Source of the DNA: a virus
Length of the DNA stretch: 64,000 bases
Reading direction: 5' to 3' (one strand)
Virus record (IMG/VR): IMGVR_UViG_3300008952_002488
Location: 107,927-171,926 of that record
In this document: positions 13,404-33,545 of the stretch, piece after piece
Layout of the letters: each line of letters begins with the position of its first letter
How positions within the stretch are numbered: position 1 is the stretch's first letter
Made by a program: the position numbers and the translations under genes
Notes under the pieces: generated by a model
Databases searched by the model: none
Seen by the model: only the letters and a program-made list of their open reading frames with translations
What the model was told of the DNA's origin: nothing

Positions 13404-14672
13404 TTGACAGAAAAAAAGAAGATAAAAGTTTTAACAATTAGTGATCACCCACTATTACCCTCGGGTGTTGGAACTCAAACAAAATATGTTATTCAAGCCC
13501 TTTTAAATACCGGAAAATTTCAGATAATATCTTTAGGTGGGGCGATAAAGCATCCTGATTATAATGTAACTAGAACAGAGGAGTGGCTCGATGATTGGCT
13601 CATTTACCCAGTCGATGGATATGGAAACCAAGAAATTGTAAGAAGCATGATAGCTCAATATAAGCCAGATATTCTTTATTTTATGACAGACCCAAGATTT
13701 TATGAATGGCTTTGGCAGTTTGAGGACGAAATAAGATTAGCAGTACCAATGGTTTATTATCATGTTTGGGATAATGGTCCAAGCCCTAGGTTTAATGCTC
13801 CATTTTATAGATCAAATGATTATATTGCAACCATTTCAAAAGTTACAAGCAACATAGTAAAAGAAGTTGCACCAGATGTTCCAGAGGAATATATCCCACA
13901 TGCTGTAAATTCAGTGGTATTTCGGAAACACACATTGCCAGAAGAAATGGCAATGTTGAGGCAAATAAGAAAAGACAATAATTTGGAAAATAAGTTTGTC
14001 TGCTTTTGGAACAACAGAAACGCTAGAAGAAAAATGAGTGGTTCTTTAGTTTGGTGGTGGAAGTCCTTCTGTGATGAGGTGGGACACGATAAAGCAACAC
14101 TGATATTACATACCGACCCAAGCGACCCACATGGACAACCTTTAGAGTTTTTAGCCCACGAACTTGGACTAATGAAAGGTCAGATACATTTCTCGAAAGA
14201 AAAAGTGCAACCTCAACAACTGGCAATTTTCTATAATCTTGTAGATTGCACGATAAATATTTCGGATGCAGAAGGTTTTGGGCTGTCCACGTTGGAATCT
14301 TTGTCTTGTGGAACCCCTGTTGTTGCGACAATGACTGGAGGACTCCAAGAGCAGGTGACCGACGGAGAGAACTTCTTTGGGGTTGGAATTGAACCTACTT
14401 CCCGAGCCGTTATTGGTTCACAGCAAGTCCCATATATCTATGAAGATAGAATAAACGAGGAAGTTTTCGTTGATGCTCTTAAAAAGATATATTATGCGAC
14501 AGAAGAAGAGAGGCAAGAGATGGGGCGAATGGGCATGGAACACGTTAAAAAGAACTATAATTTTGAGACTTTTAATAAACAGTGGATCGATTTCATGTTA
14601 AGAGTTCATGAAGAGAGCGGATCTTGGGAAACAAGAAAGAATCACGAAGCCTGGGAGTTTATTGAATTATGA
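13404..14672 (+). CDS. Glycosyltransferase, GT4 (GT-B)
   Basis: SGVG N-terminal loop; NRNARRK; EGFGLSTLESLSCGTPV (EX7E). Confidence 0.9.
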   Translation: MTEKKKIKVLTISDHPLLPSGVGTQTKYVIQALLNTGKFQIISLGGAIKHPDYNVTRTEEWLDDWLIYPVDGYGNQEIVRSMIAQYKPDILYFMTDPRFYEWLWQFEDEIRLAVPMVYYHVWDNGPSPRFNAPFYRSNDYIATISKVTSNIVKEVAPDVPEEYIPHAVNSVVFRKHTLPEEMAMLRQIRKDNNLENKFVCFWNNRNARRKMSGSLVWWWKSFCDEVGHDKATLILHTDPSDPHGQPLEFLAHELGLMKGQIHFSKEKVQPQQLAIFYNLVDCTINISDAEGFGLSTLESLSCGTPVVATMTGGLQEQVTDGENFFGVGIEPTSRAVIGSQQVPYIYEDRINEEVFVDALKKIYYATEEERQEMGRMGMEHVKKNYNFETFNKQWIDFMLRVHEESGSWETRKNHEAWEFIEL

Positions 14673-15946
14673 TAAAAGTCTTAATAAAAGGACCAATTTT
14701 TAGTAGAAGCGGTTATGGCGAGCATACAAGATATATGTTTAGGGCACTAAATAGTCGTCCGGATCTTTTTGATATTTTTGTACATCCGACTAATTGGGGG
14801 CAGTCAAGCTGGAATCTTGATTCCTCTGAGGAAACCAAAAATTTCGAAACTTGTGTAAACAAGTTGCAGCAGTTCCAAGGCAAATTTGATTTGTCGCTTC
14901 AGGTATTAATCCCAAATGAGTGGGAGAATTTAGCAGAAAAGAATATTGGAGTCACGGCTGCTATTGAAACAACTTATGCTTCGGCTCAGTGGATTCACAG
15001 CAGTAATTTCATGGATAAGATTTTTGTTACCTCTGAGCACGCCAAAAATACCTTAAAAAACCCGTCTCACACAGTTAAGACTGAAGATGGAAAAGAGCAT
15101 ATTATAAAACTTACAAAACCAGTTTCTGTGATTTCTTATCCATTTAGAGATATTAAAGCAGATAAATCCAGCCACAAGAAAATAAAGCTGGATACAAAGT
15201 TTAATTTTTTAACCTGTGCTCAGATTGGACCTCGTAAAAACCTTATGAATACTATTCGTTGGTTTGTTGAGGAATTTAAAAATGAAGAAGATGTCGGATT
15301 GGTTGTAAAAGCCCACCACATGAATAACAGCGTTTTAGACCGCAATAAAGTGAAGATGTTGCTTAGTCAAGCAGTTCACGGAGTTCCACACAGAAAATGT
15401 AGAGTTTTTCTTCTTCACGGAAATATGACTGAGGAAGAGATGAATTCTCTATATAAGCATCCAAATATTCATGCGTATGCAACAATAACCCACGGGGAAG
15501 GATTCGGTCTTCCTATTTTTGAGGCTGCTTGTAGTGGTTTGCCCGTCATAGCTCCCGCCTGGTCTGGACAAGTTGACTTCCTTTACGACAACATTAAAAA
15601 TAAAAAATCAGGTAGACTAAAAAGGACACCAATGTTTACAAAAGTAAAGTATAAATTAGATAAGGTCCCACAAGAAGCTGTCTGGGAAAATGTTGTAGAA
15701 GCAGATTCACAGTGGTGCTATTCAGATGAGGCGGCTTATAAAAAAGCCCTAAGAGGAACCATAGAAGCCTACAAGAGCAGAAAGATTGTAGCAGGAAAGC
15801 TTCAAAAATCCTTAGAGAAGAGACTTGATCAAACGAAAATGTTCGAAAAAGTTGTAGAAGAAGTATTAGATGTATACCCTGAAGATGTTGCTGAGTTAGA
15901 AGATTTTCTAGATGGTCTAGCATCTGAAATACAAGTGCATGAGTAA
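14669..15946 (+). CDS. Glycosyltransferase, GT4 (GT-B)
   Basis: SGYG; PRKN; GEGFGLPIFEAACSGLPV. Confidence 0.9.
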   Translation: MIKVLIKGPIFSRSGYGEHTRYMFRALNSRPDLFDIFVHPTNWGQSSWNLDSSEETKNFETCVNKLQQFQGKFDLSLQVLIPNEWENLAEKNIGVTAAIETTYASAQWIHSSNFMDKIFVTSEHAKNTLKNPSHTVKTEDGKEHIIKLTKPVSVISYPFRDIKADKSSHKKIKLDTKFNFLTCAQIGPRKNLMNTIRWFVEEFKNEEDVGLVVKAHHMNNSVLDRNKVKMLLSQAVHGVPHRKCRVFLLHGNMTEEEMNSLYKHPNIHAYATITHGEGFGLPIFEAACSGLPVIAPAWSGQVDFLYDNIKNKKSGRLKRTPMFTKVKYKLDKVPQEAVWENVVEADSQWCYSDEAAYKKALRGTIEAYKSRKIVAGKLQKSLEKRLDQTKMFEKVVEEVLDVYPEDVAELEDFLDGLASEIQVHE

Positions 15947-16784
15947 GATATTATTCATTGCCGATATATTTGCAGAAGAGTGGCTCGGCGGTGGAGAACT
16001 TAATAACCAAGAACTCATTGGGATATTGAGAGAAAAAGGACATGAGGTTCTGACTGTTAAAAGCGAAAATGTCAATTTAGAATTTTTACAACATTGGCAG
16101 AATGACGCAAAATTTATCGTCTCCAATTTCATAAAACTGCCGGAAGAAGTAAAGCAACACCTTCAGGAGAAGCATGATTATGTGATTTATGAACATGATC
16201 ACAAATATTTGACAACTAGAGATCCATCTGTTTTCGAAAATTATCTAGCGCCGGATGAAAATATTGTAAATCTTGATTTCTATAAAAATGCAAGAGCCGT
16301 TTTTTGTCAAAGTAGTTTACATGCTGAGGTTGTAGAAAAAAACATAAAAACAGGAAATGTACATTCGCTTGGGGGAAACCTCTGGAGCCTCGAAATTTTA
16401 GATATGTTATCATCTTTATTCCACAAGGAGAAAAAGGAAAGATATTCGATATGGGACTCGCACAATCCTATAAAAAATACTTCGCTAGCTAAAGCTTATT
16501 GTCACAGAAATAAATTAGAATATGATCTTGTTGGAGAACTACCTTATAGGGAATTTTTAAATCGATTGACAGATAATAAATACTTCATATTTTTACCTGA
16601 AACACTGGAGACCTTGTGCCGTGTCGTTGTTGAGTGCAGAATGGCCGGCATGACTGTTTTAACAAGTAAGAAGCTTGGTGCCACAAGTGAAGAGTGGTTC
16701 AAATTAAAAGGAGAAGAGCTTATAAGCTTGATGAAGCAGAAAAGAGAAACAATACCAGATTTGGTTTTGGAGAAATTATTATGA
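15939..16784 (+). CDS. Putative GT-B glycosyltransferase
   Basis: GGGE N-terminal motif; ETLCRVVVECRMAG (EX7E). Confidence 0.7.
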   Translation: MSKILFIADIFAEEWLGGGELNNQELIGILREKGHEVLTVKSENVNLEFLQHWQNDAKFIVSNFIKLPEEVKQHLQEKHDYVIYEHDHKYLTTRDPSVFENYLAPDENIVNLDFYKNARAVFCQSSLHAEVVEKNIKTGNVHSLGGNLWSLEILDMLSSLFHKEKKERYSIWDSHNPIKNTSLAKAYCHRNKLEYDLVGELPYREFLNRLTDNKYFIFLPETLETLCRVVVECRMAGMTVLTSKKLGATSEEWFKLKGEELISLMKQKRETIPDLVLEKLL

Positions 16785-17515
16785 ATCCAAAAGTTACAAT
16801 TATAATACCTTGTTATAATTCGGAAAAGTATATCGAAAAGTGTTTGAGGTCTGCCTTATCTCAAACTTATGATAATTTTGAGGTTATTTTTGTAGATAAT
16901 GACAGCGGTGATGACAGCTTGGAAATCGCCGAAAAAATACAAGAAGAGTTCCCAGAACTCCTAATTGATACTGCCCCAAATTTATACCCATTTTCCTGGG
17001 AAGAACCAGTTGAGGCAGCTTTGTCTCTGGCTACTGGTGAATATTTTACAATTCTAGGATCAGACGACTATATTTCGGAAGATTATGTATCAAATTTCAT
17101 GAAAAAGATTTTAGAATCCGAAGAAACCATTTTGGTTTTACAAAGCGGAATTAAAGGCATAGACGATAAGTCAAATTTGATCGACCAAGATGTTTCTCAC
17201 ATTTATTCAAGTATAGAGGAATTTAAAGAACTCCTGCTGCAAAGATGTCCAGTAACAACTCCGTCCGTAGTTTATAAAACAGAGCTTCACGGAAAAGGAA
17301 TTGTAAGATGGCTGGCTAGCGAATATCTTGGGGCTGCCGATTATGATCTTTATTTTAATTTGGCTGATAATGACGTTTATATCCATCCTGTCGGGGAGTG
17401 GCTTGGGTATTATTATCGCTGGCACCAAGACCAGGCAACATGGGGGATGCAAAAACAACCTCTAAATTACGACTTTATGCTCCAGAATCAATGGAGAGAA
17501 AAGTGGGGAATGTGA
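16781..17515 (+). CDS. Glycosyltransferase, GT2 (start at ATG 16781)
   Basis: VTIIIPCYN; VDNDSGD; GSDD; ADYDL. Confidence 0.9.
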   Translation: MNPKVTIIIPCYNSEKYIEKCLRSALSQTYDNFEVIFVDNDSGDDSLEIAEKIQEEFPELLIDTAPNLYPFSWEEPVEAALSLATGEYFTILGSDDYISEDYVSNFMKKILESEETILVLQSGIKGIDDKSNLIDQDVSHIYSSIEEFKELLLQRCPVTTPSVVYKTELHGKGIVRWLASEYLGAADYDLYFNLADNDVYIHPVGEWLGYYYRWHQDQATWGMQKQPLNYDFMLQNQWREKWGM

Positions 17516-19311
17516 AAGTAAGAGTTGTTGACTATATTGCTAACAAAATTGATGAACTTGGTGTAAGGGATGTTTTTACTCTTACCGGCGGCGGTGCAAT
17601 GTTCCTCAATGATTGTATTGCAAAACACCCAAATCTAAGAGCTATTTGTAATCACCACGAACAGGCTTGCGCCATGGGTGCGGTAGGCTATGGAAAATAC
17701 ACTAACAATTTTGGTGTATCAATAGTGACCACTGGTTGTGGCAGCACTAACGCTCTGACTGGATTATTGGAAGCGTGGCAAGATAATGTCAAATGCTTGT
17801 TTATATCGGGACAAGTAAATAAATCACAAACTACTCATAATATAAACGTACCACTAAGACAACTAGGTGTCCAAGAGGCTAATATCGTTGATGTAGTAAG
17901 ACCGATATGTAAATATGCAATTATGATAACAGACCCAAACAGGGTAAAGTTTGAGGTAGAAAAAGCAATTCATATCGCCAGTGAAGGACGCCCCGGACCA
18001 GTTTGGCTAGATATCCCATTGGATGTACAGGGGGCTTTTATTGACGTTGATGATTGTCTTTCTTATCCCATTAGGAGAAATAACCACATAAAGAAAAAAA
18101 TAACCCCAAGCGAGTGCGAATCCTTATCTGAGATGTTTGATAAAGCCGAACGCCCAGTGGTTTTAGTTGGGAACGGTGTTCGCCTAGCTGATGCCACGGA
18201 ACAACTCAAAACATTTGTTGAAAAATATAATATACCCACGGTAGCTACTTTTCTTGGCGTTGATCTACTAGAGAGTGATCACCCCTTGATGATCGGGAGG
18301 GTTGGAATCAAAGGGAATCGTGCAGCAAATTTCGCAATGCAAAACTCGGATCTTTTGATAACTATCGGTACTCGCTTAGGTGTTCCTGTGACTGGGTATA
18401 ATTATGAGACCTTCGCTAGAGAGGCAAAGATCGTAGTTGTAGATATTGACAGAGAAGAACACCGGAAAAACACAATCAAAATAGATAAACTGATTGGCTC
18501 CGATGCTAAGAACTTTTTAGAAATTATAAAGTTTAATAAAAAGGTTACCAAAGAATGGTCAGACACATGTTTGAGGTGGAAGAAAAACTGGAGAGTATGT
18601 AATCCGGAATGGAGCAAAGACAAAGAAGGAATAGATCTATATTATTTTATGGATCATCTCTCAAGGCAGAATAAAGATGACTCGGTTGTTGTATCTGATG
18701 CAGGATCCGCATACTATGTTCCTTCTCAATTTCTGGATATTAAAAAAGAACAAAGATATGTAACGTCTGGAGCACAAGCAGACATGGGGTTTACGATCCC
18801 CGCCGCCATTGGGGTTAGTGTTGCAAGGGGAGATAAAGAGGTTATAGGAATTACAGGCGATGGATCTTTCCAAACAAACATCCAAGAACTTCAGACAATA
18901 AAACATTATAACCTACCGATAAAACTTTTCGTGTGGAACAATCACGGATATTTGTCTATCAGAACAACACAGAGAAAGTTTTTTGATGGCAGATTTATAG
19001 GTGTTGACGGCGATTCTGGAGTGTCACTTCCAAACATAGAAAAAATTACCGACGCCTACGGGCTGAAGTATTTTAAGATTGAAACTGTTGAGGGGTTGGA
19101 AGATGGCATACAAAAGGTTCTGAATTATGATGGTCCAGTTGTGTGTGAGGTGATGTGTCAAAAATGGCAAGAAGTTGTTCCAACGCTTATATCGACAAAG
19201 ACAAAAGACGGAAGAATCGTGTCTAGACCATTCGAAGATATGTATCCGCTCTTAACTAGAGAAGAATTTTACGATAACATGATTATCGAGCCTATAAACT
19301 ATGAGGAATAA
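17512..19311 (+). CDS. ThDP-dependent acetolactate-synthase-like enzyme (YerE-like carboligase candidate)
   Basis: HHEQAC; GRPGPVWLDIP; GDGSF...NNHGY ThDP motif. GTG start overlaps the previous stop. Lies inside the sugar cluster. Confidence 0.85.
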   Translation: MKVRVVDYIANKIDELGVRDVFTLTGGGAMFLNDCIAKHPNLRAICNHHEQACAMGAVGYGKYTNNFGVSIVTTGCGSTNALTGLLEAWQDNVKCLFISGQVNKSQTTHNINVPLRQLGVQEANIVDVVRPICKYAIMITDPNRVKFEVEKAIHIASEGRPGPVWLDIPLDVQGAFIDVDDCLSYPIRRNNHIKKKITPSECESLSEMFDKAERPVVLVGNGVRLADATEQLKTFVEKYNIPTVATFLGVDLLESDHPLMIGRVGIKGNRAANFAMQNSDLLITIGTRLGVPVTGYNYETFAREAKIVVVDIDREEHRKNTIKIDKLIGSDAKNFLEIIKFNKKVTKEWSDTCLRWKKNWRVCNPEWSKDKEGIDLYYFMDHLSRQNKDDSVVVSDAGSAYYVPSQFLDIKKEQRYVTSGAQADMGFTIPAAIGVSVARGDKEVIGITGDGSFQTNIQELQTIKHYNLPIKLFVWNNHGYLSIRTTQRKFFDGRFIGVDGDSGVSLPNIEKITDAYGLKYFKIETVEGLEDGIQKVLNYDGPVVCEVMCQKWQEVVPTLISTKTKDGRIVSRPFEDMYPLLTREEFYDNMIIEPINYEE

Positions 19312-19314
19312 AAA

Positions 19315-20253
19315 ATGGCAACCGACCCAAAAAAGACAACTATTTTAACACTAAGGAGGCACAAGAGACAAGAAAAGAAATCTGTATTTGTGACCGCCTA
19401 TGATTATCCACAGGCACTACTCGCTGACAAGGCGGGAGTTGATGGGATACTTGTTGGCGATTCTTTAGGGATGACCACCTTGGGTCATAAAACAACTATA
19501 CCAGTTACAATGGACGCTATGATTCTGCACGCCGAAGCAGTTGCCCGTGGAGCCAAGAGTGCTTTTCTGGTGGGAGACATGCCTTACATGTCTTATCAAG
19601 CTTCAAACAGCGAAGCAGTACATAATGCTGGTCGGTTTATTCGGGCTGGCATGGATTCTGTCAAAGTCGAGGGAGCGATGGTGGATCGTATCAAAGCAAT
19701 TGCTGATGCCGGAATTCTCGTTCAGAGTCACTTAGGTCTCACCCCTCACACAAGAGCAAAGTTAGGTGGCTATAGAGTTCAGGGAAAAACTGCGGAGAGC
19801 ACAGAAATTATTCTTAATCAAGCACTCGAACTACAAGAGGCCGGATGTGCCTTCCTTCTGTTAGAGGCGATGCCAAGAGAATCAGCACAAGCAGTAGCGA
19901 AAGAGTTGAGCATCCCGGTGTATGGTATTGGCGCTGGGGATTTGGTGGATGGTCAGCTTGTTATTATGCACGACTTGGTTGGGTTATTTTGGGAGTTTAA
20001 GTCCAAGTTTGTTAAGAGATACTGCGAGGCTGGAGCCATTATTCAAACGGCTTTGGAACAATATGCCGAAGAAGTTCGCAATGGAGTGTTTCCCTCAGAA
20101 GAAAACTTCTATGAAATTAAAGATGAGGAGCTTGAGAAACTTCTTTCTAATGCAAAATGGAAGTATGAAACCGATCAAGGATTTCCAACTAACCATAGTC
20201 CAACTCCAAACACAGTAACCCCTAAAGAAGATATTTTCAATAATAAAAAATGA
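19315..20253 (+). CDS. panB: 3-methyl-2-oxobutanoate hydroxymethyltransferase family
   Basis: TAYDY, LVGDSLGM, GDMPYMSY, VKVEG, HLGLTP, GIGAG, DGQ. Confidence 0.92.
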   Translation: MATDPKKTTILTLRRHKRQEKKSVFVTAYDYPQALLADKAGVDGILVGDSLGMTTLGHKTTIPVTMDAMILHAEAVARGAKSAFLVGDMPYMSYQASNSEAVHNAGRFIRAGMDSVKVEGAMVDRIKAIADAGILVQSHLGLTPHTRAKLGGYRVQGKTAESTEIILNQALELQEAGCAFLLLEAMPRESAQAVAKELSIPVYGIGAGDLVDGQLVIMHDLVGLFWEFKSKFVKRYCEAGAIIQTALEQYAEEVRNGVFPSEENFYEIKDEELEKLLSNAKWKYETDQGFPTNHSPTPNTVTPKEDIFNNKK

Positions 20254-21080
20254 AGGTCCTAATAACTGGGCGAAACGGTTTTTTAGCAAAAGAGTTATAC
20301 GAGAAATTTGACGATCTTGATATAACTTGTGCCGGAAGAAAAGAAGTAAACTTAACGGACAGTCAGTCTGTAAGAATATTCTTGCAACAAAACAGGTTTG
20401 ATGCCGTCGTACACACTGCCATAATCGGAGGCAGAAGAAACGAAACAGATACTCTCCAAACCTTTGTTGACAACATTTCGATGTTTAATAATTTGGTAGC
20501 AAACAGGCATTCTTTTGGAAAACTAATCAACTTCTGTTCTGGGGCAGCTTTCGGAAAAAATGCTGATATATACAAATACCAAGAAAACAGAATTTACTCA
20601 TTTACACCCTCTGATTATTATGGGATGTCGAAAAACATAATCGCCCGTGAGTGCGATAAATTGTTTGATGTTTATAATCTTAGGTTGTTCGGGTGCTTTG
20701 GGTTTCATGAAGCAAAAACTAGGTTTATAAAATCTTCCATTTTAAGGGCTTTAAAAGGAGAGCCAATATTAATTCATAAAAATAAGATGATGGATTTTGT
20801 TTCATCAGATGACGTGGCAACTGTTGTTCGTCACTATTTGGAAAATGATCCAGGGAAAGATTATGAAAATATCAACATATGCTACAAAGAAAAACATACA
20901 TTAAGGAATATAGCAGCAGAGATTGTAACTTTAACAAATTCTAGTTCTGATATAATATTAGAAGAAGATGGGTTTGCAAACACCTATACTGGGTGTAGTG
21001 ATAAATTGGAAACTCTTGGTCTTGACCTACAGGGTCTTGTTGTAGGGTTGAGAAATTTGACGGAAAGATTAAGTGAATAA
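20250..21080 (+). CDS. NAD-dependent epimerase/dehydratase/reductase (extended SDR)
   Basis: ITGRNGFLA; YGMSK (YxxxK). Confidence 0.85.
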   Translation: MKVLITGRNGFLAKELYEKFDDLDITCAGRKEVNLTDSQSVRIFLQQNRFDAVVHTAIIGGRRNETDTLQTFVDNISMFNNLVANRHSFGKLINFCSGAAFGKNADIYKYQENRIYSFTPSDYYGMSKNIIARECDKLFDVYNLRLFGCFGFHEAKTRFIKSSILRALKGEPILIHKNKMMDFVSSDDVATVVRHYLENDPGKDYENINICYKEKHTLRNIAAEIVTLTNSSSDIILEEDGFANTYTGCSDKLETLGLDLQGLVVGLRNLTERLSE

Positions 21081-22416
21081 GCTAGAAGAGATACTTTCAC
21101 TTGTAAGAGAGTACGCAGAAGAAAATCTCCTCAAAAAATCATGGGAGGAGGGTGATTGGATTAATTATTCTGGTCCTAATTTTTCTTCGGATGAGTATGC
21201 GGCCGCCGTAGAAACACTACTGGACGGATGGCTTGTTATAGGAAAAAGATCTAGGGAATTTGAGAATAGATTTCCATCGCACCTGGGCAAGAGGTACGGA
21301 ATTCTGACAAATTCTGGCAGTTCTGCTAATCTTGTAATGGTACATGCCTTTACAAGCAAGCAAAAGTTTATGAAGAAATATCACCTCCCAAAGGGGAGTA
21401 AAATCATCACGCCTGTAGTTTGTTTCCCTACTACGATTAATCCTATTATTCAGGCAGGATTCGAGCCAGTATTTGTTGATGTTGACTTACCATCTCTTAA
21501 TCTAAATTTAGACGAAGTAGAAAGATTATTAGAAACAGACAAAGACATAAAAGGACTAATGTTCGCTCACGTTTTAGGAAACCCACCAGATATGGACAGG
21601 GTTATGAGTTTGGTTGAGAAATATGATCTAATATTTCTAGAAGATTCGTGCGATGCCTTGGGGTCTTTTTATGACGGAAAACCTTTGGGGTCTTTTGGCC
21701 ATGCCTCTTCGTGTTCGTTTTATCCAGCGCACCATATGACAATGGGGGAAGGAGGTTTTGTAGCAACAGATGACCCAAGAATCCGAAGGGTTCTGGCAAG
21801 CTTTAGAGATTGGGGTCGTGCTTGTTACTGCAACGAGAAAAAGCCAGGAGATGTTACAGACGGCACAGCCTGTGGAAACAGATTTAGAGAGTGGTTAAGA
21901 GATGGCAATCAGAGTTTTGTTTATGATCATCGATATGTGTTTGATGAGGTAGGCTTTAATCTAAAACCATTAGAGCTTCAGTCAGCAATAGGACTTGAAC
22001 AAATAGAAAAACTTCCATCAATGGATTCTGCTCGGCGCAAGAACTTTCTTCGCCTCAAGGAAATATTTTCAAAATATAACGAATATTTTATGCTTCCAAC
22101 TGCAACTCCAAAATCAGATCCCTGTTGGTTTGGGTTTATGACGACAGTAAAACAAAACAACAAGTTCACAAAACAGGATTTGGTTGAGTATCTGGAAGAA
22201 CACAAGATCCAGACAAGATCATATTTCACAGGTAACTGCTTATACCACCCAGCATATAAGGAATATGCTTCTAAATATGAAAACCTTATAGAAAGATTTC
22301 CAAACGCTCACGTTGCTACCGTTGATACTTTTTTTATGGGAACCTTCATTGGGATAACCGACCAAAAGTTGGATTATATTGAAAAAGTTGTTGACAACTT
22401 CTTCGAGAGGGTGTAA
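21073..22416 (+). CDS. rfbH: NDP-4-keto-6-deoxyhexose 3-dehydrase (RfbH/DdhC, E1-like)
   Basis: NSGSSAN; SFYPAHHMTMGEGG with His in place of the PLP Lys; RDWGRACYC..C Fe-S insert. Confidence 0.9.
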   Translation: MNKLEEILSLVREYAEENLLKKSWEEGDWINYSGPNFSSDEYAAAVETLLDGWLVIGKRSREFENRFPSHLGKRYGILTNSGSSANLVMVHAFTSKQKFMKKYHLPKGSKIITPVVCFPTTINPIIQAGFEPVFVDVDLPSLNLNLDEVERLLETDKDIKGLMFAHVLGNPPDMDRVMSLVEKYDLIFLEDSCDALGSFYDGKPLGSFGHASSCSFYPAHHMTMGEGGFVATDDPRIRRVLASFRDWGRACYCNEKKPGDVTDGTACGNRFREWLRDGNQSFVYDHRYVFDEVGFNLKPLELQSAIGLEQIEKLPSMDSARRKNFLRLKEIFSKYNEYFMLPTATPKSDPCWFGFMTTVKQNNKFTKQDLVEYLEEHKIQTRSYFTGNCLYHPAYKEYASKYENLIERFPNAHVATVDTFFMGTFIGITDQKLDYIEKVVDNFFERV

Positions 22417-22417
22417 T

Positions 22418-23368
22418 ATGAAAATAGTATATATTACTGGTTGTCTTGGTTTTATTCCATCGTATTTTACGAAAAAGTGCCTAGAAAGAGGATGGATGGT
22501 TTATGGTGTAGATAAAGTTACTTACGCCGCAAATACAAAAATTCTAAAAGAGTTCCAGACTTATGAAAACTTTAGGTTTAAACAGGAAGATATTAAAGAT
22601 CTGGATGTTTTATACGATTGCGATTATGTTGTCAACTTTGCAGCAGAATCACATGTTGGTAACAGTATTATAAACAGCGATGAATTTATAAACACTAACA
22701 TCGTGGGTACAAAAAACCTTTTAGACTTAGTTAGGTTTAAACCAATAAACTGTGGAGAGAGACCAATCTTTTTACATGTAAGTACTGACGAGGTTTACGG
22801 AGATATAGAAGAAGGGTCTCACAAAGAGACAGACTTGTTACACCCAAGCAATCCATATTCGGCAGCCAAAGCAGCAGCAGATATGCTGGTCTTTGCCTGG
22901 GCAAGAACTTATGGTATTAAATATTTGATAGCCAGACCAACAAACAATTACGGTATGAGACAATATCCAGAAAAGCTTATACCTCTCAGTGTGAAGAATC
23001 TGTTGCGTGACAGGAAGATTTGGCTCCACAACAACGGAACACCTGTAAGGAACTGGCTTCACGCAGATGACACGGCTGAAGCAATCATGACTCTTATTGA
23101 TTCTGGGGTAACAAATGATATTTTCAACATTGCCGGCGATTTTGAGCAAACAAACGCAGAAACTGTCCGAAAGATTATCAAGTCATTCTATGGAACAGAT
23201 GACGACTGGGAAAAGTATGTTGATTATTCATATGAGAGAGAAGGTCAGGATATGAGATATTGTTTAGATGACAACAAAATAAGATCTCTTGGTTGGACAC
23301 CTAAGAAGATATTTGATGAAGAAATAGACGAAATAGTTTCTTTTTATAAGAAAAATTTTATATGGTAA
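22418..23368 (+). CDS. rfbB: dTDP-glucose 4,6-dehydratase-like
   Basis: DKVTYAA; NFAAESHV; STDEVYG; PYSAAK; NNYG..QYPEKLIP. Glycine motif is the variant GCLGFIP. Confidence 0.88.
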   Translation: MKIVYITGCLGFIPSYFTKKCLERGWMVYGVDKVTYAANTKILKEFQTYENFRFKQEDIKDLDVLYDCDYVVNFAAESHVGNSIINSDEFINTNIVGTKNLLDLVRFKPINCGERPIFLHVSTDEVYGDIEEGSHKETDLLHPSNPYSAAKAAADMLVFAWARTYGIKYLIARPTNNYGMRQYPEKLIPLSVKNLLRDRKIWLHNNGTPVRNWLHADDTAEAIMTLIDSGVTNDIFNIAGDFEQTNAETVRKIIKSFYGTDDDWEKYVDYSYEREGQDMRYCLDDNKIRSLGWTPKKIFDEEIDEIVSFYKKNFIW

Positions 23369-23372
23369 GAAA

Positions 23373-24311
23373 ATGAGATTAGATTACAAAGATATTATTA
23401 ATAAACACAAAGGAAAGCCGTGTGTGGTTGCTCTCCATGGACCCAGTTTATCACCACACATAGATGAAATTCAAAACCTCCAAAAACAGGATAAAATAAT
23501 AAGAATTTCTGTAAATGAGTGGTTTGATTTCTTTAAAGAAAAGCCAGATTATTGGGTAATTTCCAATGCCGAGCTTAATATTAGGGACTCAGTATTAAAC
23601 GAGAACATTTGGAAAATGAGAGGATACCCACCAGATGTTTTTAATACTCAGGGGGTACCTCTATTATATAACAGAACAGCCGATTTGACAGATCCAGATT
23701 TTGTAGATAAGAACTTAAAGTGTGATTATCTTCCGTTCGATAATAGACACTTTAAAGGACATAAGTGTCTGGACATTTTGAAAAACTTTAAAAAATATCA
23801 CGATGAAAACAGGAATCTAGATTTTAGAATGTACGGGAATAATGCCCAAATGTGGCAACTCCCAGATACAAGAAGTGTAAACCCACACTGTGCTCAGGTA
23901 CATGGGGTCGTTGCGGGCGGCTGGTCACGCTTTGGAAAGTGTTGTCATTTGATGCAGGAAACAACTATACAAGAAAAATTACAAGAGATAACTGGACACC
24001 CCCAACATATGGGCGTTGGACAGACGGTAGGATTGTTTTGTGTTATGTTTGCTGTTATGATGGGGTGTAATCCAATATATGTTACCGGACTTGATTTAGA
24101 CTATACGCTTGGGTATGCTGAAGGTGCCGACAAGCCCTATTATGTTCCTAACCCAGGTAACGTTGGACACTGGCGTCACGTCTTCCAAGAATTTCTAACA
24201 GATGATATGAGGATTTTGCGTGAGAGTGCAGATTTAAATGGTATAGAAATTATTAACCTTAATAAAAACGCATGGTATGATGTGTTTAAGAAAGGAGACT
24301 TAGGTCTATGA
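23373..24311 (+). CDS. Maf/DUF115-like putative nonulosonate (sialyl-type) transferase
   Basis: VVALHGPSL; ISVN; PDYWV; MGCNPIYVTGLD. Directly upstream of neuB-neuA. Confidence 0.6.
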   Translation: MRLDYKDIINKHKGKPCVVALHGPSLSPHIDEIQNLQKQDKIIRISVNEWFDFFKEKPDYWVISNAELNIRDSVLNENIWKMRGYPPDVFNTQGVPLLYNRTADLTDPDFVDKNLKCDYLPFDNRHFKGHKCLDILKNFKKYHDENRNLDFRMYGNNAQMWQLPDTRSVNPHCAQVHGVVAGGWSRFGKCCHLMQETTIQEKLQEITGHPQHMGVGQTVGLFCVMFAVMMGCNPIYVTGLDLDYTLGYAEGADKPYYVPNPGNVGHWRHVFQEFLTDDMRILRESADLNGIEIINLNKNAWYDVFKKGDLGL

Positions 24312-25144
24312 GTGTTTTTGTGATTGCTGAGGTTGGAATTAACCACAACGGGAGTCTTGATATTGCGAAGCAGCTAATTGATGCCGCCGTCGAGGCTGGC
24401 TGTGATGCTGTTAAGTTTCAAAAGAGAACGGTGGATGTTGTATACACCAAGGAGGAGTTAGACAAGCCGAGGGAGAGTCCGTGGGGAACTACAAACCGTC
24501 AACAAAAATATGGACTGGAGTTTACCAAGGAAGATTACCAAGAGATCGATCAATATTGTAAAAATGCGGGCATCGAGTGGCTTGCATCTGCATGGGATGT
24601 AGAAAGTCAGAAGTTTCTACGTCAGTTTGATTGCAAATATAATAAAGTGGCGTCAGCAATGTTGACACATAGAGAATTGTTAAAAACGATTGCTTCGGAG
24701 AAGAAACATACGTTCATTTCGACTGGAATGAGCACCCTGGAACAGATTGATAAGGCTGTACAGATCTTTGAGGACGCTGATTGTTCGTATGAACTCATGC
24801 ACTGCAATAGTACCTACCCAATGCCGGTCGAAGATGCAAATTTAAAGGTTATGCACACTCTTCAGGAACGCTATAATTGTAACGTTGGATATAGTGGTCA
24901 TGAGAGTGGTGTTATCGTTAGTTGTGCGGCAGTTGCTATGGGTGCCTCATCTCTTGAGCGCCACATCACACTTGATAGAGCAATGTATGGATCGGATCAG
25001 TCAGCTTCTCTGGAAATTGGAGGACTGAATAAATTGATGGAGTATGTCAGAGATATTACAAAATCTATGGGCTCACCGGAAAAAAGAGTGATGAGGACAG
25101 AGGTGGACATTGCCGAAAAACTCAGAAAGTTTGACACCCTGTGA
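24308..25144 (+). CDS. neuB: N-acetylneuraminate/nonulosonate synthase, lacking the C-terminal AFP-like domain
   Basis: IAEVGINHNG; AVKFQKR; STGMS; HCNSTYP; GYSGHE; ERHITLDR. Confidence 0.92.
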   Translation: MSVFVIAEVGINHNGSLDIAKQLIDAAVEAGCDAVKFQKRTVDVVYTKEELDKPRESPWGTTNRQQKYGLEFTKEDYQEIDQYCKNAGIEWLASAWDVESQKFLRQFDCKYNKVASAMLTHRELLKTIASEKKHTFISTGMSTLEQIDKAVQIFEDADCSYELMHCNSTYPMPVEDANLKVMHTLQERYNCNVGYSGHESGVIVSCAAVAMGASSLERHITLDRAMYGSDQSASLEIGGLNKLMEYVRDITKSMGSPEKRVMRTEVDIAEKLRKFDTL

Positions 25145-25866
25145 GACAAATTTCTGCCCTCATTCCTGCAAGAGGTGGAAGCAAGGGAATACACAAAAAG
25201 AATATAAAGCTATTACATGGGCATCCTCTAATAGCCTATTCTATAATCGCTTGTAAAATGTCGGATATGATTGGTAGAATTATAGTATCTACCGATGATG
25301 AAGAAATAGCCGAGGTGGCGCTGAAATACGGAGCAGAAGTGCCATTTATGCGACCCGCTGAATTGGCAACCGACAAGTCGAGGGACATGGAAGTCATTAA
25401 ACACTATTTTGATGTAACTGGCGATGCAGATGTTGCATACATTAGACCAACAACGCCCTTGAGAGATCCAAAATTTATTGATGAGAATATTAGAGAATAT
25501 TTTCATACAAAAATATTGTGCTCAACGGGGGTTCGGTCCATGCATGAATTGCCAGAATCGCCGCACAAGATGTTCCAAATAGACAAAAATGGTTATTGCC
25601 GTGGTTTTTTTGATGATTTCGATGGGATAAAAAACTACACAAACTTACCGAGACAAATATTTCCGAAAGCATATCAACCAAATGGGTATTTGGATATTGT
25701 TAAAAGAGCCACTCTTGATGTTGGCGATACGTTCGGAGATAACATTTTGCCCATTGTGACGGAGTTTGTCATAGAGGTTGATACACCATTTCAATTCGAA
25801 CTTCTTGAGAGTCAACTTAATTCAAAGGGTCATGTTTTATTGGGTGAATTAAAAAATGAGCATTGA
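25141..25866 (+). CDS. neuA: CMP-nonulosonate synthetase (acylneuraminate cytidylyltransferase)
   Basis: IPARGGSKGI..KN; VSTDD; RPAELATD; RPTTPLR; NGY; EVDT. Confidence 0.92.
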   Translation: MRQISALIPARGGSKGIHKKNIKLLHGHPLIAYSIIACKMSDMIGRIIVSTDDEEIAEVALKYGAEVPFMRPAELATDKSRDMEVIKHYFDVTGDADVAYIRPTTPLRDPKFIDENIREYFHTKILCSTGVRSMHELPESPHKMFQIDKNGYCRGFFDDFDGIKNYTNLPRQIFPKAYQPNGYLDIVKRATLDVGDTFGDNILPIVTEFVIEVDTPFQFELLESQLNSKGHVLLGELKNEH

Positions 25867-27115
25867 GACAAAACATAGAAAAATTAATGCTGGATATAAG
25901 CTAGAAGAAACAGAACTCAATGACCGCCGCCACGAGTTAGAAACAAAAGCCAACGGACACCAAGTCCCTGTCGTTTGGGATAGTGCTATCGACTATAACG
26001 TTTTCGACAAGCAGGGTAATAAATGGATTGATATGACTGCCGGCATCTTTGCGGCAAACGCAGGACACTCCAACCCAAAGATTAAAGAAGCTATTCAGAA
26101 CCAACTGGATAAAAACCTTATTTTCGCTTATCAATATATAACGGAGATAAGACAGCAGTTTGTCGAAAAGCTTTTGGATAGCTCCCCAGATCATTTTGAT
26201 AAAACCATCCTGATGAATACAGGCTCAGAAGCCACGGACGTAGCCTATAAACTGATCAAGTTATGGGCAAAGAAAAACAACAAGAAATATATTGTTACTT
26301 TCAATGGAAGTTACCACGGGCGGGTTCTTGGGTCTGCTTTAGTGTGCGGATCAAAGGGGGCAGCAGATTGGTCTTCGGTAGTTGATGACGATGTTATATT
26401 TATAGATTTCCCGACAGACCAGGGTGCCGAGTTTGATCCCACAATATTGGGAGATCCCGCTAATATTGCTGCATTTATGATTGAAACATACCAAGGGTGG
26501 GCAGCGTGGATGTACCCTCCTCAATATATCCAGGCGCTCTATAAATTTGCCAGAGATAACGGAGCCCTTATTTGTTTTGATGAAGTTCAGGCAGGGTTTT
26601 ACCGCATGGGTAAAATGTACGGCTATATGACTTATGGAGAAAACATCAAGCCTGATCTGATATGTTTAGGGAAGGGTATTTCATCCTCTTTGCCGATGGC
26701 TGCTGTCCTTGGTACAGAGGAGATTATTGATGTTGATTTAAACGCAAACTTGAGCGGAACTCATGCTGGTAATGCGCTAGGGTCTGCTGCTTGCTTGGCA
26801 AACCTTGATATATTAACCGACGAAGAGTTTCAAAGGGAATTAAAAGAAAGAGTTAACGCATTTGAGAGAAGAAGTCAAGACCTGTTAAAATATCAATGCG
26901 TGGAGGCTATCAACGCCAGGGGCATCGTCGCAGGTATTGTATTTGACACAACAGAAAGAACAAACAAAATAGTGTTTGACTGTATTGAGCATGGAGTGCT
27001 TCCTGTTTGCACATTTAGAGAATCAATTAAGCTTGGTCCACCACTAACGATACCAGTAGATGCTATTCATGAAGCTTTTGATGTTATAGAAGAGTGCATC
27101 CAAAGGAACCAGTAA
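25856..27115 (+). CDS. Class III PLP aminotransferase
   Basis: NTGSEA; SYHG; FDEVQAGF; LGKG; GTHAGN. Confidence 0.9.
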   Translation: MSIETKHRKINAGYKLEETELNDRRHELETKANGHQVPVVWDSAIDYNVFDKQGNKWIDMTAGIFAANAGHSNPKIKEAIQNQLDKNLIFAYQYITEIRQQFVEKLLDSSPDHFDKTILMNTGSEATDVAYKLIKLWAKKNNKKYIVTFNGSYHGRVLGSALVCGSKGAADWSSVVDDDVIFIDFPTDQGAEFDPTILGDPANIAAFMIETYQGWAAWMYPPQYIQALYKFARDNGALICFDEVQAGFYRMGKMYGYMTYGENIKPDLICLGKGISSSLPMAAVLGTEEIIDVDLNANLSGTHAGNALGSAACLANLDILTDEEFQRELKERVNAFERRSQDLLKYQCVEAINARGIVAGIVFDTTERTNKIVFDCIEHGVLPVCTFRESIKLGPPLTIPVDAIHEAFDVIEECIQRNQ

Positions 27116-30347: not shown

Positions 30348-30738
30348 AAAATATTTGCCTACCTTATCCGAATTGATCGATAGGCTATCCATTGCCCAAT
30401 TAAAAGAAGTGTTCATAACCGATCATAAAGAAGAATACGCAAAAGAAATTTCCGATATCTGTCACGACATCCAGCTAATTTTAGATAAAGCTGATGTTAT
30501 TGATGCGGATACTATTCGTGCTATCGTTGTTCTTGCTCAAATGAATTTACATATTTGGCACAATGAATCAAATTATAGGAAGGGAATCAAGGACGGTAAC
30601 AATCTCGAACTAACACATGGGCTAAACGGAATCAGAAACACGGCGAAAAATAAAATTCAAGAACTTGCAGGCGGAAGAAAAGATTATAAGATCGATTGTT
30701 TAGCGGCTGAGTTTAAAGATTGGGACATCAGTTGGTAA
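30340..30738 (+). CDS. Helical hypothetical protein of a type seen in glycan clusters (DUF4254-like)
   Basis: ELIDRLSI.QLK; N..IWH.E; N..RN..KN.I. Confidence 0.55.
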   Translation: MTRKYLPTLSELIDRLSIAQLKEVFITDHKEEYAKEISDICHDIQLILDKADVIDADTIRAIVVLAQMNLHIWHNESNYRKGIKDGNNLELTHGLNGIRNTAKNKIQELAGGRKDYKIDCLAAEFKDWDISW

Positions 30739-31223
30739 ACAACACATTCCCAGAAGTTGGAGTTTTTGATTCTGACATGTTCCGAGACTATCGGGGCGAT
30801 ATTTGGACAACTTATAAAAAGAAAACATCCGCAATAAAACTAGATTTTATTCATGATAAATTTTCATCTTCTAGGAAGAGTGTGATTCGTGGAATCCACG
30901 GAGATTATAAAACTTGGAAGATGGTTAGTTGTATACACGGAGAGATTTATTTTGTTGTGGTTGATAACCGCCCCGACTCAGAAACATACCTCCAGTGGGA
31001 TTGGATGATACTTGACGACAAAGAAAGAAAACAAGTTTTACTTCCGCCCGGCTTCGGAAATGGGTTTTGTGTGATGAGCGATACAGCCGTTTTCAGTTAT
31101 AAGCTCGCATACGATGGAGAGTATTCTGACGTTGATCAACAATTTACCTTAAAATGGAACGATCCTCGTGTTAACATAGACTGGCCAACCAGTAATCCAA
31201 TATTACAAGCGAGAGACAAATGA
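30720..31223 (+). CDS. rfbC: dTDP-4-dehydrorhamnose 3,5-epimerase (RmlC) family
   Basis: DYRG; VIRGIH; VVDNR..S.TY; PPGFGNGF; WNDP..IDWP. Exact start uncertain. Confidence 0.85.
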   Translation: MGHQLVNNTFPEVGVFDSDMFRDYRGDIWTTYKKKTSAIKLDFIHDKFSSSRKSVIRGIHGDYKTWKMVSCIHGEIYFVVVDNRPDSETYLQWDWMILDDKERKQVLLPPGFGNGFCVMSDTAVFSYKLAYDGEYSDVDQQFTLKWNDPRVNIDWPTSNPILQARDK

Positions 31224-31846
31224 ACATTCCAAATCATCTTAAAAAAGTTAGAAAGGTTTCTTTGAGTCCTCAAGAACTTATTGATTTTGAGTCTAAAGTT
31301 AGAGATACTTATGAGGCGGGAAAAGTCAAGGGACCAATCCACCTCGCCAAGAATAACGAAGAACAACTGATAGAAATATTTCAGTACATAAGTCCAGATG
31401 ATTGGGTTTTTGTCCCCTGGAGAAATCACTACCACGCTCTTTTACATGGAGTTGATCCAGAAAAGCTGTTTAATTCTATTGTAGAAGGTAGAAGCATGGG
31501 GACAAACAACATAAAGCCAAACTTTTATGCCTCTTCTATTGTGGGTGGCATTATACCTCTAGCTTTAGGTACCGCTCTTGCGCTAAAAACAAAGGGGTCC
31601 AATAAAAGGGTTTGGTGTTTTGTAGGCGATATGACGATGGAAACTGGTGTGTTTCACGAGGCATACAAGTACGCAAAAAATTTCAATCTCCCCCTTCAGT
31701 GGGTGGTCGAAGATAACAATATGAGTGTTCATACACCAACCGAGATGGCATGGGGCAAAAAACAAGAAGCACCTGATGGTGTCATTTATTACAAGTATGA
31801 AATGGAGTACCCCCATCACGGGACAGGAAAGTGGGTCAATTTTTAA
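31220..31846 (+). CDS. Short ThDP-dependent E1-alpha-like subunit
   Basis: GPIHL; WRNHYH; SIVGG; GDMTMETG...EDNN. Only 208 aa. Confidence 0.85.
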   Translation: MNIPNHLKKVRKVSLSPQELIDFESKVRDTYEAGKVKGPIHLAKNNEEQLIEIFQYISPDDWVFVPWRNHYHALLHGVDPEKLFNSIVEGRSMGTNNIKPNFYASSIVGGIIPLALGTALALKTKGSNKRVWCFVGDMTMETGVFHEAYKYAKNFNLPLQWVVEDNNMSVHTPTEMAWGKKQEAPDGVIYYKYEMEYPHHGTGKWVNF

Positions 31847-32383
31847 ATGAGTTATAAGAGTGAACTTATTAGGTCGATGGAGTGGTTATCTCGGAAAGAA
31901 GATACAATCTTTTTAGGACAAGCCTGCAAGGTTAGCGGACACGCAATCTCCAGCACTTTAGAAAAAGTCCCAGACGAAAAAAGAATTGAATTACCAGTTT
32001 TTGAAGAAACACAGATGGGTATTTCAACCGGAATGGCCCTGGAGGGTTATGTACCCATAACAATGTATCCTCGCTTCGATTTCTTTATTCTTGCCTGTAA
32101 TCAATTGGTTAACCATTTAGATAAAATGAGGGACATGTCAAAGGGTGATATGACACCTCGTGTTATTATTCGGGTTGCTATAGGGTCAAAGAATCCAATT
32201 GATGCAGGTCCACAGCACACCCAGAACCACACTGAAGCCCTTCGTAAAATGTTAACAGAGGTAGAGGTCGTAGAACTTTATGAGGCAGAGGATATATTCG
32301 CAGAATTTAAGAACGCTTACGAGCGATTAGATTCAAAATCAACACTTCTTGTAGAATATGGAGAATTCTATGGGACAAAGTAA
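31847..32383 (+). CDS. Short E1-beta/transketolase pyrimidine-binding subunit
   Basis: ELPVFEETQMG; NQLVN; GPQHTQ. No C-terminal domain. Confidence 0.85.
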   Translation: MSYKSELIRSMEWLSRKEDTIFLGQACKVSGHAISSTLEKVPDEKRIELPVFEETQMGISTGMALEGYVPITMYPRFDFFILACNQLVNHLDKMRDMSKGDMTPRVIIRVAIGSKNPIDAGPQHTQNHTEALRKMLTEVEVVELYEAEDIFAEFKNAYERLDSKSTLLVEYGEFYGTK

Positions 32384-33545
32384 ATTCACATGGCCTCTAA
32401 TAAACGACAATATTACAGAATCAGATAAATACGCACTTATTGACTGGTTAAAAGAACCAAACGTTCGCTTCACTCAGTCAAAATATGTGCGAAAGTTTGA
32501 GGAAGAGTGGTCAAAATGGCTTGGCGTAAAATATACTGTATTTGTCAACTCCGGAGCGTCCGCCAATTATATTATGGCATCTATCCTCAAAGAAATGAAA
32601 GGTAGAGGGGAAGTTATTGTTCCGCCCATAGGTTGGGTGTCTGATATTGCCCCTATTGTAAATCTTGGCATGACGCCAGTCTTTGTTGATGTTGACATGA
32701 GCAGTATGGCTATTACTGCTGAGAATATTAAAAATGCTATAACCGACAGGACGATTGGCATTACTTTGGTTCACGCTCTGGGGTTTGATGGACTTACAGA
32801 TGAGCTTGTAAAAATAGCAAAAGAACACGATTTAATTCTTATTGAGGATTGTTGTGAGTCACATGGCGCAACCCATAATGGAAGACTTGTTGGTTCTCAT
32901 GGGTTGATGTCAAACTTTTCATTTTATTTTGGGCACCACATCACTACCGTAGAGGGAGGAGTTGTTTGCACTAACGATGAGAAAGTTTATGAGCTTGCAA
33001 AAATGTTTAGATCTCATGGTATGATTAGAGAAGCTGACACTAAATTACAAGAATATTATGAAAAAAAGTATCCCGATTTAAATCCGCTGTTTACATTTGC
33101 TGTCCCTGGTTATAATTTAAGAAATACTGAGTTTAATGCTGTATTGGGGTTGCAACAAATAAAGCGTTTAGATCAGGCGTGTAAAATAAGGTCTTTCAAT
33201 CTTGGTATATGGTTGGAGTTTTTGGATAGTAAAAAGTATTATACCGATTTCAAGTTTGATGGAAACAGTAATTTCGCACTACCGCTCATCTTGTTAGACA
33301 AGGACAAAAATAGAATGAAAAATGTGGAAAAAACCCTTCGCACTATGGGTGTCGAATATAGGATAGGAACAGCAGGCGGGGGAAACCAAGCCCGTCAACC
33401 ATATCTGGAGGGATATAGACATAGAGTTGTTGGCGACCTTAAAAATGCAGATCATATTCATGATTTCGGTCTTTATGTGGGTAACCATACAGATCTAACG
33501 GAAACACAAATTAGAGAACTATGTGAGGCTTTGAATGTTTGTTGA
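32370..33545 (+). CDS. DegT/DnrJ-fold NDP-4-keto-6-deoxyhexose 3-dehydratase (ColD-like)
   Basis: VNSGASAN; EDCCESHGA; FSFYFGHHITTVEGG with His in place of Lys; no Fe-S insert. Confidence 0.8.
   Translation: MGQSKFTWPLINDNITESDKYALIDWLKEPNVRFTQSKYVRKFEEEWSKWLGVKYTVFVNSGASANYIMASILKEMKGRGEVIVPPIGWVSDIAPIVNLGMTPVFVDVDMSSMAITAENIKNAITDRTIGITLVHALGFDGLTDELVKIAKEHDLILIEDCCESHGATHNGRLVGSHGLMSNFSFYFGHHITTVEGGVVCTNDEKVYELAKMFRSHGMIREADTKLQEYYEKKYPDLNPLFTFAVPGYNLRNTEFNAVLGLQQIKRLDQACKIRSFNLGIWLEFLDSKKYYTDFKFDGNSNFALPLILLDKDKNRMKNVEKTLRTMGVEYRIGTAGGGNQARQPYLEGYRHRVVGDLKNADHIHDFGLYVGNHTDLTETQIRELCEALNVC

Follow-up and report, generated by a model that had tools for sequence, protein, structure and literature searches.

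The window analysed in this study is a stretch of 64,000 nucleotides (nt) covering bases 107,927-171,926 of one 171.9-kb virus record (IMG/VR IMGVR_UViG_3300008952_002488), which is estimated to be about 60% complete. The contig comes from a large T4-like marine phage, with terminase, portal, major head, tail sheath, tail tube and baseplate proteins all encoded. Window DNA is present in seawater metagenomes from more than one study, and all 30 bins of the stretch were covered by contigs of a second seawater study. The region between about 13.4 and 38.3 kb consists almost wholly of glycosyltransferase and nucleotide-sugar enzyme genes, which share one strand and either overlap or abut their neighbours. 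Within this island sits the subject of this report, a cassette of five genes encoding, in order, a thiamine diphosphate (ThDP)-dependent enzyme, PanB, a short-chain dehydrogenase/reductase (SDR), RfbH and a 4,6-dehydratase. Gene calling confirmed this order, as given in a preliminary description of the stretch, with all five genes on the + strand and intergenic gaps of +3, -4, -8 and +1 nt.

The first gene (17512..19311) has a GTG start, overlaps the stop of a family 2 glycosyltransferase (GT2) gene by 4 nt and encodes a YerE/ErwE/JanthE-like ThDP-dependent carboligase of 599 amino acids (aa) with the Pfam TPP N, M and C domains, for which acyl grafting at C4 is predicted. It is followed by a 312-aa paralogue of the PanB hydroxymethyltransferase family (19315..20253; PF02548, TIGR00222 above cut-off), the predicted donor maker, and by an extended SDR of 276 aa (20250..21080; PF01370, YxxxK at 124). 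A 447-aa C3-dehydrase of the RfbH/DdhC (E1) type (21073..22416; NF011936 above cut-off) and a 316-aa 4,6-dehydratase of the RmlB, or thymidine diphosphate (dTDP)-glucose, type (22418..23368; TIGR01181) complete the cassette.

Judged on its sequence, the ThDP enzyme is a member of the YerE-like sugar-branching subclass and not an acetohydroxyacid synthase (AHAS). It falls under every acetolactate synthase cut-off, the best score being 375 against 538 bits, and its best solved relatives, JanthE (8RPH, 435 bits) and PpYerE (5AHK, 248 bits), come ahead of AHAS. E50 and the GDG and NN motifs are kept, and F109, M250, R276, V375, M460 and W464 of AHAS II (Salmonella IlvG) are replaced by V, I, P, A, S and T, respectively. 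R276 of AHAS II is the residue that holds the acceptor keto acid, and V375 restricts how large the donor can be; with both replaced, the phage enzyme should make acetolactate poorly and accept a larger donor. The suggestion that it might form acetolactate only is thus disfavoured by the missing AHAS residues. No relevant literature on V375A turned up, and the contig gave no match to the AHAS small subunit (PF10369). ErwE and the window enzyme are 39% identical and have in common an Ala-containing donor-pocket loop (Ala at the V375 position), and a tree places the window enzyme with ErwE and another DmpFG-linked enzyme at a moderate support of 84/93, which lies under the threshold set. One of the baseline genomes proved to contain the erwiniose locus of Pectobacterium atrosepticum, its ThDP and SDR proteins clustering with WP_011093010 (ErwE) and WP_011093011 (ErwF).

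The window PanB is intact and has the ketopantoate hydroxymethyltransferase (KPHMT) fold, matching 1M3U and 1OY0, with equivalents of D45, S46, D84, K112, E114, H136 and E181 all present. Its pocket positions 179, 212 and 214 (E. coli numbering) are occupied by Leu, Leu and Ile. The same triad was found in 80 of 80 ThDP-linked PanBs and, at positions read or inferred from the alignment, in nine of ten further metagenome ThDP-linked PanBs, the tenth having Phe179. All of the sampled panC-linked PanBs carry Val, Val or Ile, and Val at these positions (Val179 and Val214 in 22/22). The division also holds within single genomes, where the panC-linked or sole housekeeping PanB is Val/Val/Val and the extra copy Leu/Leu/Ile; three cellular assemblies hold a ThDP-linked PanB together with a second, Val/Val/Val copy. 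One branch of the PanB tree splits 18 ThDP-linked from 22 panC-linked sequences (97/92), so that the phylogeny sets the window PanB apart from the panC-linked enzymes, with no panC nearby. The loop after His136 is changed in the main clade (TPQ to TPH-T-R-x-K in 74/76) and unchanged (TPQ) in a second PanB lineage. TPQ to TPH was considered as a mark of the ThDP-linked role and rejected, since this second lineage occupies the same slot and retains Gln. Two independent recruitments of PanB are likewise unsupported: the two lineages fall on the same side of the tree, separated by unlinked sequences.

The pairing of PanB with the ThDP enzyme is strongly conserved. Among the closest viral PanB relatives (70-86% identity) the ThDP gene is directly adjacent in 80 of 80 contigs, and in 30 of 30 after thinning to below 90% identity, a constancy that is not due to chance. 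Of the PanB hits in cellular genomes, the five closest have an adjacent ThDP gene and 75 more distant ones do not. The pair occurs in both gene orders, and its ThDP member comes from at least four lineages that are mutually only 28-38% identical. In two phages otherwise syntenic with the window, L205 and L207, the slot is filled by the second PanB lineage (45-48% identity). The several ThDP lineages and the second PanB lineage together indicate that the pair is held by function and not by the shared descent of one DNA block. No panC was found in about 200 related loci. The GenBank phage collection yielded no close relative of the window PanB or of the ThDP enzyme; the best panB match there (47%), in the Microcystis phage MaAM05 record, lies two genes from panC and was set aside as a housekeeping type.

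The YerE-like plus RfbH module of the preliminary description stands in part: the PanB-ThDP unit is conserved and RfbH is optional. RfbH-like genes accompany the pair at 57 of 62 loci in the ThDP-panB order and at none of the 23 in the panB-ThDP order. Many of the latter carry instead a B12 radical S-adenosylmethionine (SAM) gene, DegT, RmlC or split E1/transketolase genes. A second type of cassette (L003, L084, L085 and related loci) lacks RfbH and joins the panB-ThDP pair to DegT, SDR and a B12-dependent radical SAM gene; it was also observed in Chloroflexota and Oligoflexia assemblies, in two cases near heptose-pathway-like genes. In one locus (L192 8001-10009) the ThDP gene is in pieces around a 178-aa open reading frame (ORF) that looks like a homing endonuclease within an intron.

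What PanB might contribute is suggested by the known acyl-branched sugars. In the published scheme for longer branches an aldolase makes a hydroxylated 2-oxo acid, which is then used by the ThDP enzyme before a reductase acts (Steitz et al., 2022; PMC9306805), and ErwE accepts 4-hydroxy-2-oxobutanoate but not pyruvate (PMC9306805). In a set of 49 cellular YerE-like loci drawn from three phyla, PanB was never seen near the ThDP gene, and 36 of the loci carry an HpcH/HpaI, DmpG or NeuB-like gene there; in the window cassette no HpcH/DmpG-type aldolase is adjacent and PanB holds the slot. Among phage loci whose close ThDP relatives lack PanB, sixteen (within L175-L191) have a 358-aa NeuB-like protein in its place next to the ThDP gene, and the accompanying RfbH, dehydratase and SDR belong to the families seen at the PanB loci; the NeuB-like protein is likely to make a 2-keto-3-deoxy acid donor for a longer branch. 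PanB is chemically suited to the slot, as its product class is the 4-hydroxy-2-oxo acids, and E. coli KPHMT is a class II aldolase acting on many 2-oxo acids (PMC7610986, PMC7611260). With a keto-acid aldolase or synthase present in 36 of the 49 cellular loci, and PanB absent from all 49, PanB most likely fills the donor-making slot of the published scheme.

The acceptor, a nucleoside diphosphate-4-keto-3,6-dideoxy sugar, would be formed by the 4,6-dehydratase and E1, both encoded in the cassette. RfbH scores 457.7 bits with the NCBIfam RfbH model (cut-off 423), has Yersinia E1 (3BCX, E 1e-100) as its best solved relative and keeps His220 and the cluster ligands of that enzyme, Cys251, Cys253, Cys267 and His286. 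The dehydratase scores 301 bits with TIGR01181 against 76 bits for the cytidine diphosphate (CDP), or RfbG-like, type; its best solved relatives are all dTDP enzymes, and TDE and YxxxK are kept. As it is RmlB-like and not RfbG-like, the sugar nucleotide is probably dTDP. The nicotinamide adenine dinucleotide-binding motif of the dehydratase (22418-22460) reads GxxGxxP, not GxxGxxG; the close relative L001 has the same motif, which argues against an error of sequencing. The SDR has distant homology to ErwF (24-26% identity, pairwise E 4e-7 to 9e-9), and no solved relative at E below 1e-6 was found for it. In 44 of 48 close relatives it lies no more than four genes away from the ThDP gene, and it is a probable side-chain ketoreductase of the YerF/ErwF kind.

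From the gene identities, the intact catalytic residues, the linkage and the phylogeny we infer a pathway, comprising its substrates, the order of the PanB and ThDP steps, its product and its target. The cassette probably builds a nucleotide-activated, C4-acyl-branched 3,6-dideoxyhexose by the logic of erwiniose synthesis, with PanB as donor maker. Host dTDP-glucose would be converted to the 4-keto-6-deoxy sugar by the RmlB-type enzyme, and the C3 hydroxyl removed by RfbH with a host reductase, which is invoked because an E3 was looked for and not found in the contig. Such borrowing has a precedent in SpnQ of spinosyn synthesis, a dTDP-linked E1 served by a general host reductase. The PanB paralogue would hydroxymethylate C3 of a small 2-oxo acid with a one-carbon (C1) unit from methylene-tetrahydrofolate (or formaldehyde); the ThDP enzyme would then decarboxylate the product and join the hydroxy-acyl unit to C4, and the SDR would reduce the branch ketone. 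Neighbouring phage glycosyltransferases may place the sugar on virion proteins or on the host surface.

As to the 2-oxo acid, pyruvate, giving 4-hydroxy-2-oxobutanoate, is the leading candidate, with about as much to be said for it as against it. 2-Oxobutanoate appears unlikely, and ketoisovalerate, giving ketopantoate, or another substrate pair would each be less likely still. Residues 202, 212 and 214 set the substrate scope of E. coli KPHMT (PMC7610986). Larger residues where the methyls of ketoisovalerate sit imply a smaller nucleophile, which favours pyruvate; 4-hydroxy-2-oxobutanoate is also a proven ErwE donor, and the quaternary carbon of ketopantoate would make it a hard ThDP donor. 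Ketopantoate, the donor first put forward, is therefore probably not the one used. With pyruvate the product would be a 3,6-dideoxy-4-C-(1,3-dihydroxypropyl)-hexose, that is, erwiniose minus its terminal methyl (a nor-erwiniose type).

Three other explanations start from the same genes. The PanB paralogue might act as a folate-independent class II aldolase joining pyruvate to another aldehyde, such as acetaldehyde or glycolaldehyde, and so yield a longer branch like that of erwiniose or caryophyllose. E. coli KPHMT accepts several aldehydes folate-free in vitro (PMC7610986), and the slot is normally occupied by true aldolases. However, no aldehyde-supplying gene of the ErwJ type accompanies the PanB-ThDP pair, and the V214G change that widens E. 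coli KPHMT for larger aldehydes (PMC7610986) is opposed here by the larger Ile, which renders this version improbable.

A reversed order, in which the ThDP enzyme adds acetyl from pyruvate in the manner of YerE and the resulting branch on the nucleotide sugar is hydroxymethylated by PanB afterwards, would explain the tight linkage equally well and could end in an identical product; the changed loop after His136 could bind the nucleotide sugar. It is nevertheless quite improbable, given that the Mg- and carboxylate-binding residues for the 2-oxo acid are invariant in the PanBs, that TPQ is kept by the second lineage in the same slot, and that several sugar contexts are served by one compact PanB clade. 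This order was also tested and rejected for ErwE (PMC9306805).

Very improbable is the reading of panB as an auxiliary metabolic gene that boosts pantothenate and coenzyme A (CoA), in which the ThDP enzyme would be an acetolactate synthase and the SDR a ketopantoate reductase. The window PanB does score above the panB equivalog cut-off with all catalytic residues in place, and viral panB genes have been so interpreted in print (PMC8940887, PMC6851583). Against this, the ThDP enzyme fails the AHAS cut-offs and lacks R276, M460 and W464, the ThDP-linked and panC-linked PanBs separate both by tree and by pocket residues, and no panC was found in the related loci. The absence of panC, panE, ilvC and ilvH reported for the window extends to the whole contig, in which no match to panC, panD, panE, ilvC, ilvD or ilvH was found (171.9 kb, 60% complete; the full genome is beyond this scope). 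The comparative evidence supports the earlier proposal that this PanB is a dedicated paralogue whose hydroxymethylated 2-oxo acid goes to a YerE-type carboligase and not into vitamin B5 synthesis. The making of an N-acyl group (e.g. 2,4-dihydroxybutanoyl) by PanB was set aside, no acyltransferase or ligase accompanying the pair.

Several points weigh against the proposed donor-making pathway. We know of no natural sugar with a 1,3-dihydroxypropyl branch, and the grouping with ErwE has the moderate support given above. The cyanobacterial and Chloroflexota baseline loci reach only 1.5 kb per side. The contig, 60% complete, gave no match to an E3-type reductase, ferredoxin or nucleoside triphosphate transferase (PF00175, PF00111, PF00483), the last standing for the nucleoside diphosphate-glucose pyrophosphorylase expected of such clusters, so host supply is assumed. 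Residue 179 is only presumed to line the pocket. Finally, the Leu/Leu/Ile triad also occurs in about 42 unlinked PanBs of anaerobes and may reflect ancestry; as the mark of a broader non-pantothenate subfamily, it does not count as independent evidence for the pathway.

These unlinked paralogues, found in L091, L093 and L102 (Acetobacterium, Eubacterium) and about 40 other anaerobe loci, have neither ThDP nor panC neighbours. Those of acetogens are flanked by an opine-dehydrogenase-like gene and a corrinoid protein, and in two of five genomes tested the Leu/Leu/Ile form is the sole PanB, with no panC match. A C1 or catabolic role is suggested for them.

Among known systems the erwiniose pathway of P. 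atrosepticum (ErwI/ErwJ aldolase-dehydrogenase, ErwE, ErwF) appears a closer model than yersiniose, to which the preliminary description referred. It resembles the cassette in its 3,6-dideoxy-4-keto sugar genes, its ThDP carboligase with the Ala-containing donor loop, its distantly homologous SDR and the presence next door of an enzyme that could form a 4-hydroxy-2-oxo acid. The cassette differs in that its predicted donor maker is a PanB-family C1 transferase and not a DmpG/HpcH aldolase, and in being phage-encoded, with a dTDP-type dehydratase and without aldehyde dehydrogenase or E3. The CDP-yersiniose A pathway of Yersinia pseudotuberculosis (DdhA-D, YerE, YerF) likewise has an RfbH/E1 with His220 and cluster ligands, a YerE-like enzyme and an SDR; YerE, however, takes pyruvate and needs no donor-making gene, the nucleotide is CDP compared with the probable dTDP of the cassette, and PpYerE is a more distant match to the ThDP enzyme than JanthE or ErwE. 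JanthE (Janthinobacterium sp. HH01) has a broad donor range and, like the phage enzyme, carries Val and Pro at the F109 and R276 positions. It differs in having Met at the V375 position and a CDG motif, and no natural substrates have been established for it (PMC12188165). Housekeeping E. coli PanB (1M3U) is about 41% identical to the window PanB, with the same fold, metal ligands and catalytic base. Absence of panC linkage, Leu179/Leu212/Ile214 compared with Val/Val-or-Ile/Val, the changed loop after His136 and a C-terminal extension of about 45 residues, the first part of it helical, distinguish the phage protein.

Upstream of the cassette, four coupled genes on the + strand (13404..17515; overlaps of 4-8 nt) encode two GT4-like proteins, one protein without a Pfam match and one GT2. 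They are candidate transferases for the branched sugar, and the block is also upstream of the cassette in the syntenic phages L001, L205 and L207. Straight after the cassette (23373-27115) lies a nonulosonic-acid-type module of MptE/Maf-like, short NeuB, NeuA/PseF-like cytidylyltransferase and class III aminotransferase genes, which is missing from L205 and L207. A second C-branching module of the island is possibly formed further on (30720-33545) by RmlC, a DegT-family gene and transketolase-like ThDP genes split into E1-alpha and E1-beta; a split pair of this kind adjoins panB-ThDP in L010, L067 and L083. Near baseplate genes are a 2,275-aa protein (42963-49790) and an open frame (53506-64000) of 3,498 codons or more that is cut off by the contig end. 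Outside the window (G000 C1 2907-9421 and elsewhere) many small ORFs have a common N-terminal motif like MKITKxQLRKIIKEE.

The pair was also observed with RfbH-like and dehydratase genes on two low-GC contigs with DUF5880/DUF5904 genes (L263 5998-8570, L264 5998-10659). These contigs resemble algal (prasinovirus-like) viruses, and their PanB is nested within the phage clade on a long branch. Its presence there hints at virion glycans as the target. More tentatively, the Leu/Leu/Ile PanB subfamily may form 4-hydroxy-2-oxobutanoate from pyruvate and methylene-tetrahydrofolate, and widespread marine jumbo phages, and probably algal viruses too, may use it to build an undescribed nine-carbon branched sugar, 3,6-dideoxy-4-C-(1,3-dihydroxypropyl)-hexose, for their virion glycans.

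The acyl-branched-sugar pathway type is already known. An in-silico survey by Krug in 2024 reportedly covered more than 200 YerE-like clusters. In the literature covered, which excluded some YerE-cluster and KPHMT studies, no description of a PanB-ThDP pairing or of a PanB-family donor maker was found, nor anything on panB with branched sugars, phage panB with acetolactate synthase, or such pairs in prasinoviruses. Viral KPHMT genes, among them those of the Ostreococcus viruses OlV7 and OtV2 (PMC6851583), have been interpreted as pantothenate genes (PMC8940887, PMC6851583), and in one oxygen-minimum-zone survey panB ranked first in abundance among the vitamin-class auxiliary genes (PMC8940887).

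If the proposal is correct, a folate-dependent C1 transferase would join the donor makers of acyl-branched sugars as a new kind, and the sugar predicted is one that has yet to be isolated. The three-residue mark (179/212/214) would separate the pantothenate PanBs from a second, unstudied subfamily, and the pairs would offer new carboligases and hydroxymethylases for biocatalysis. The 'pantothenate' gene of ocean viruses is probably often a glycan gene; this abundant viral 'vitamin' gene and its 'acetolactate synthase' neighbour would then be reassigned to glycan synthesis, and claims that viruses boost host CoA would change.

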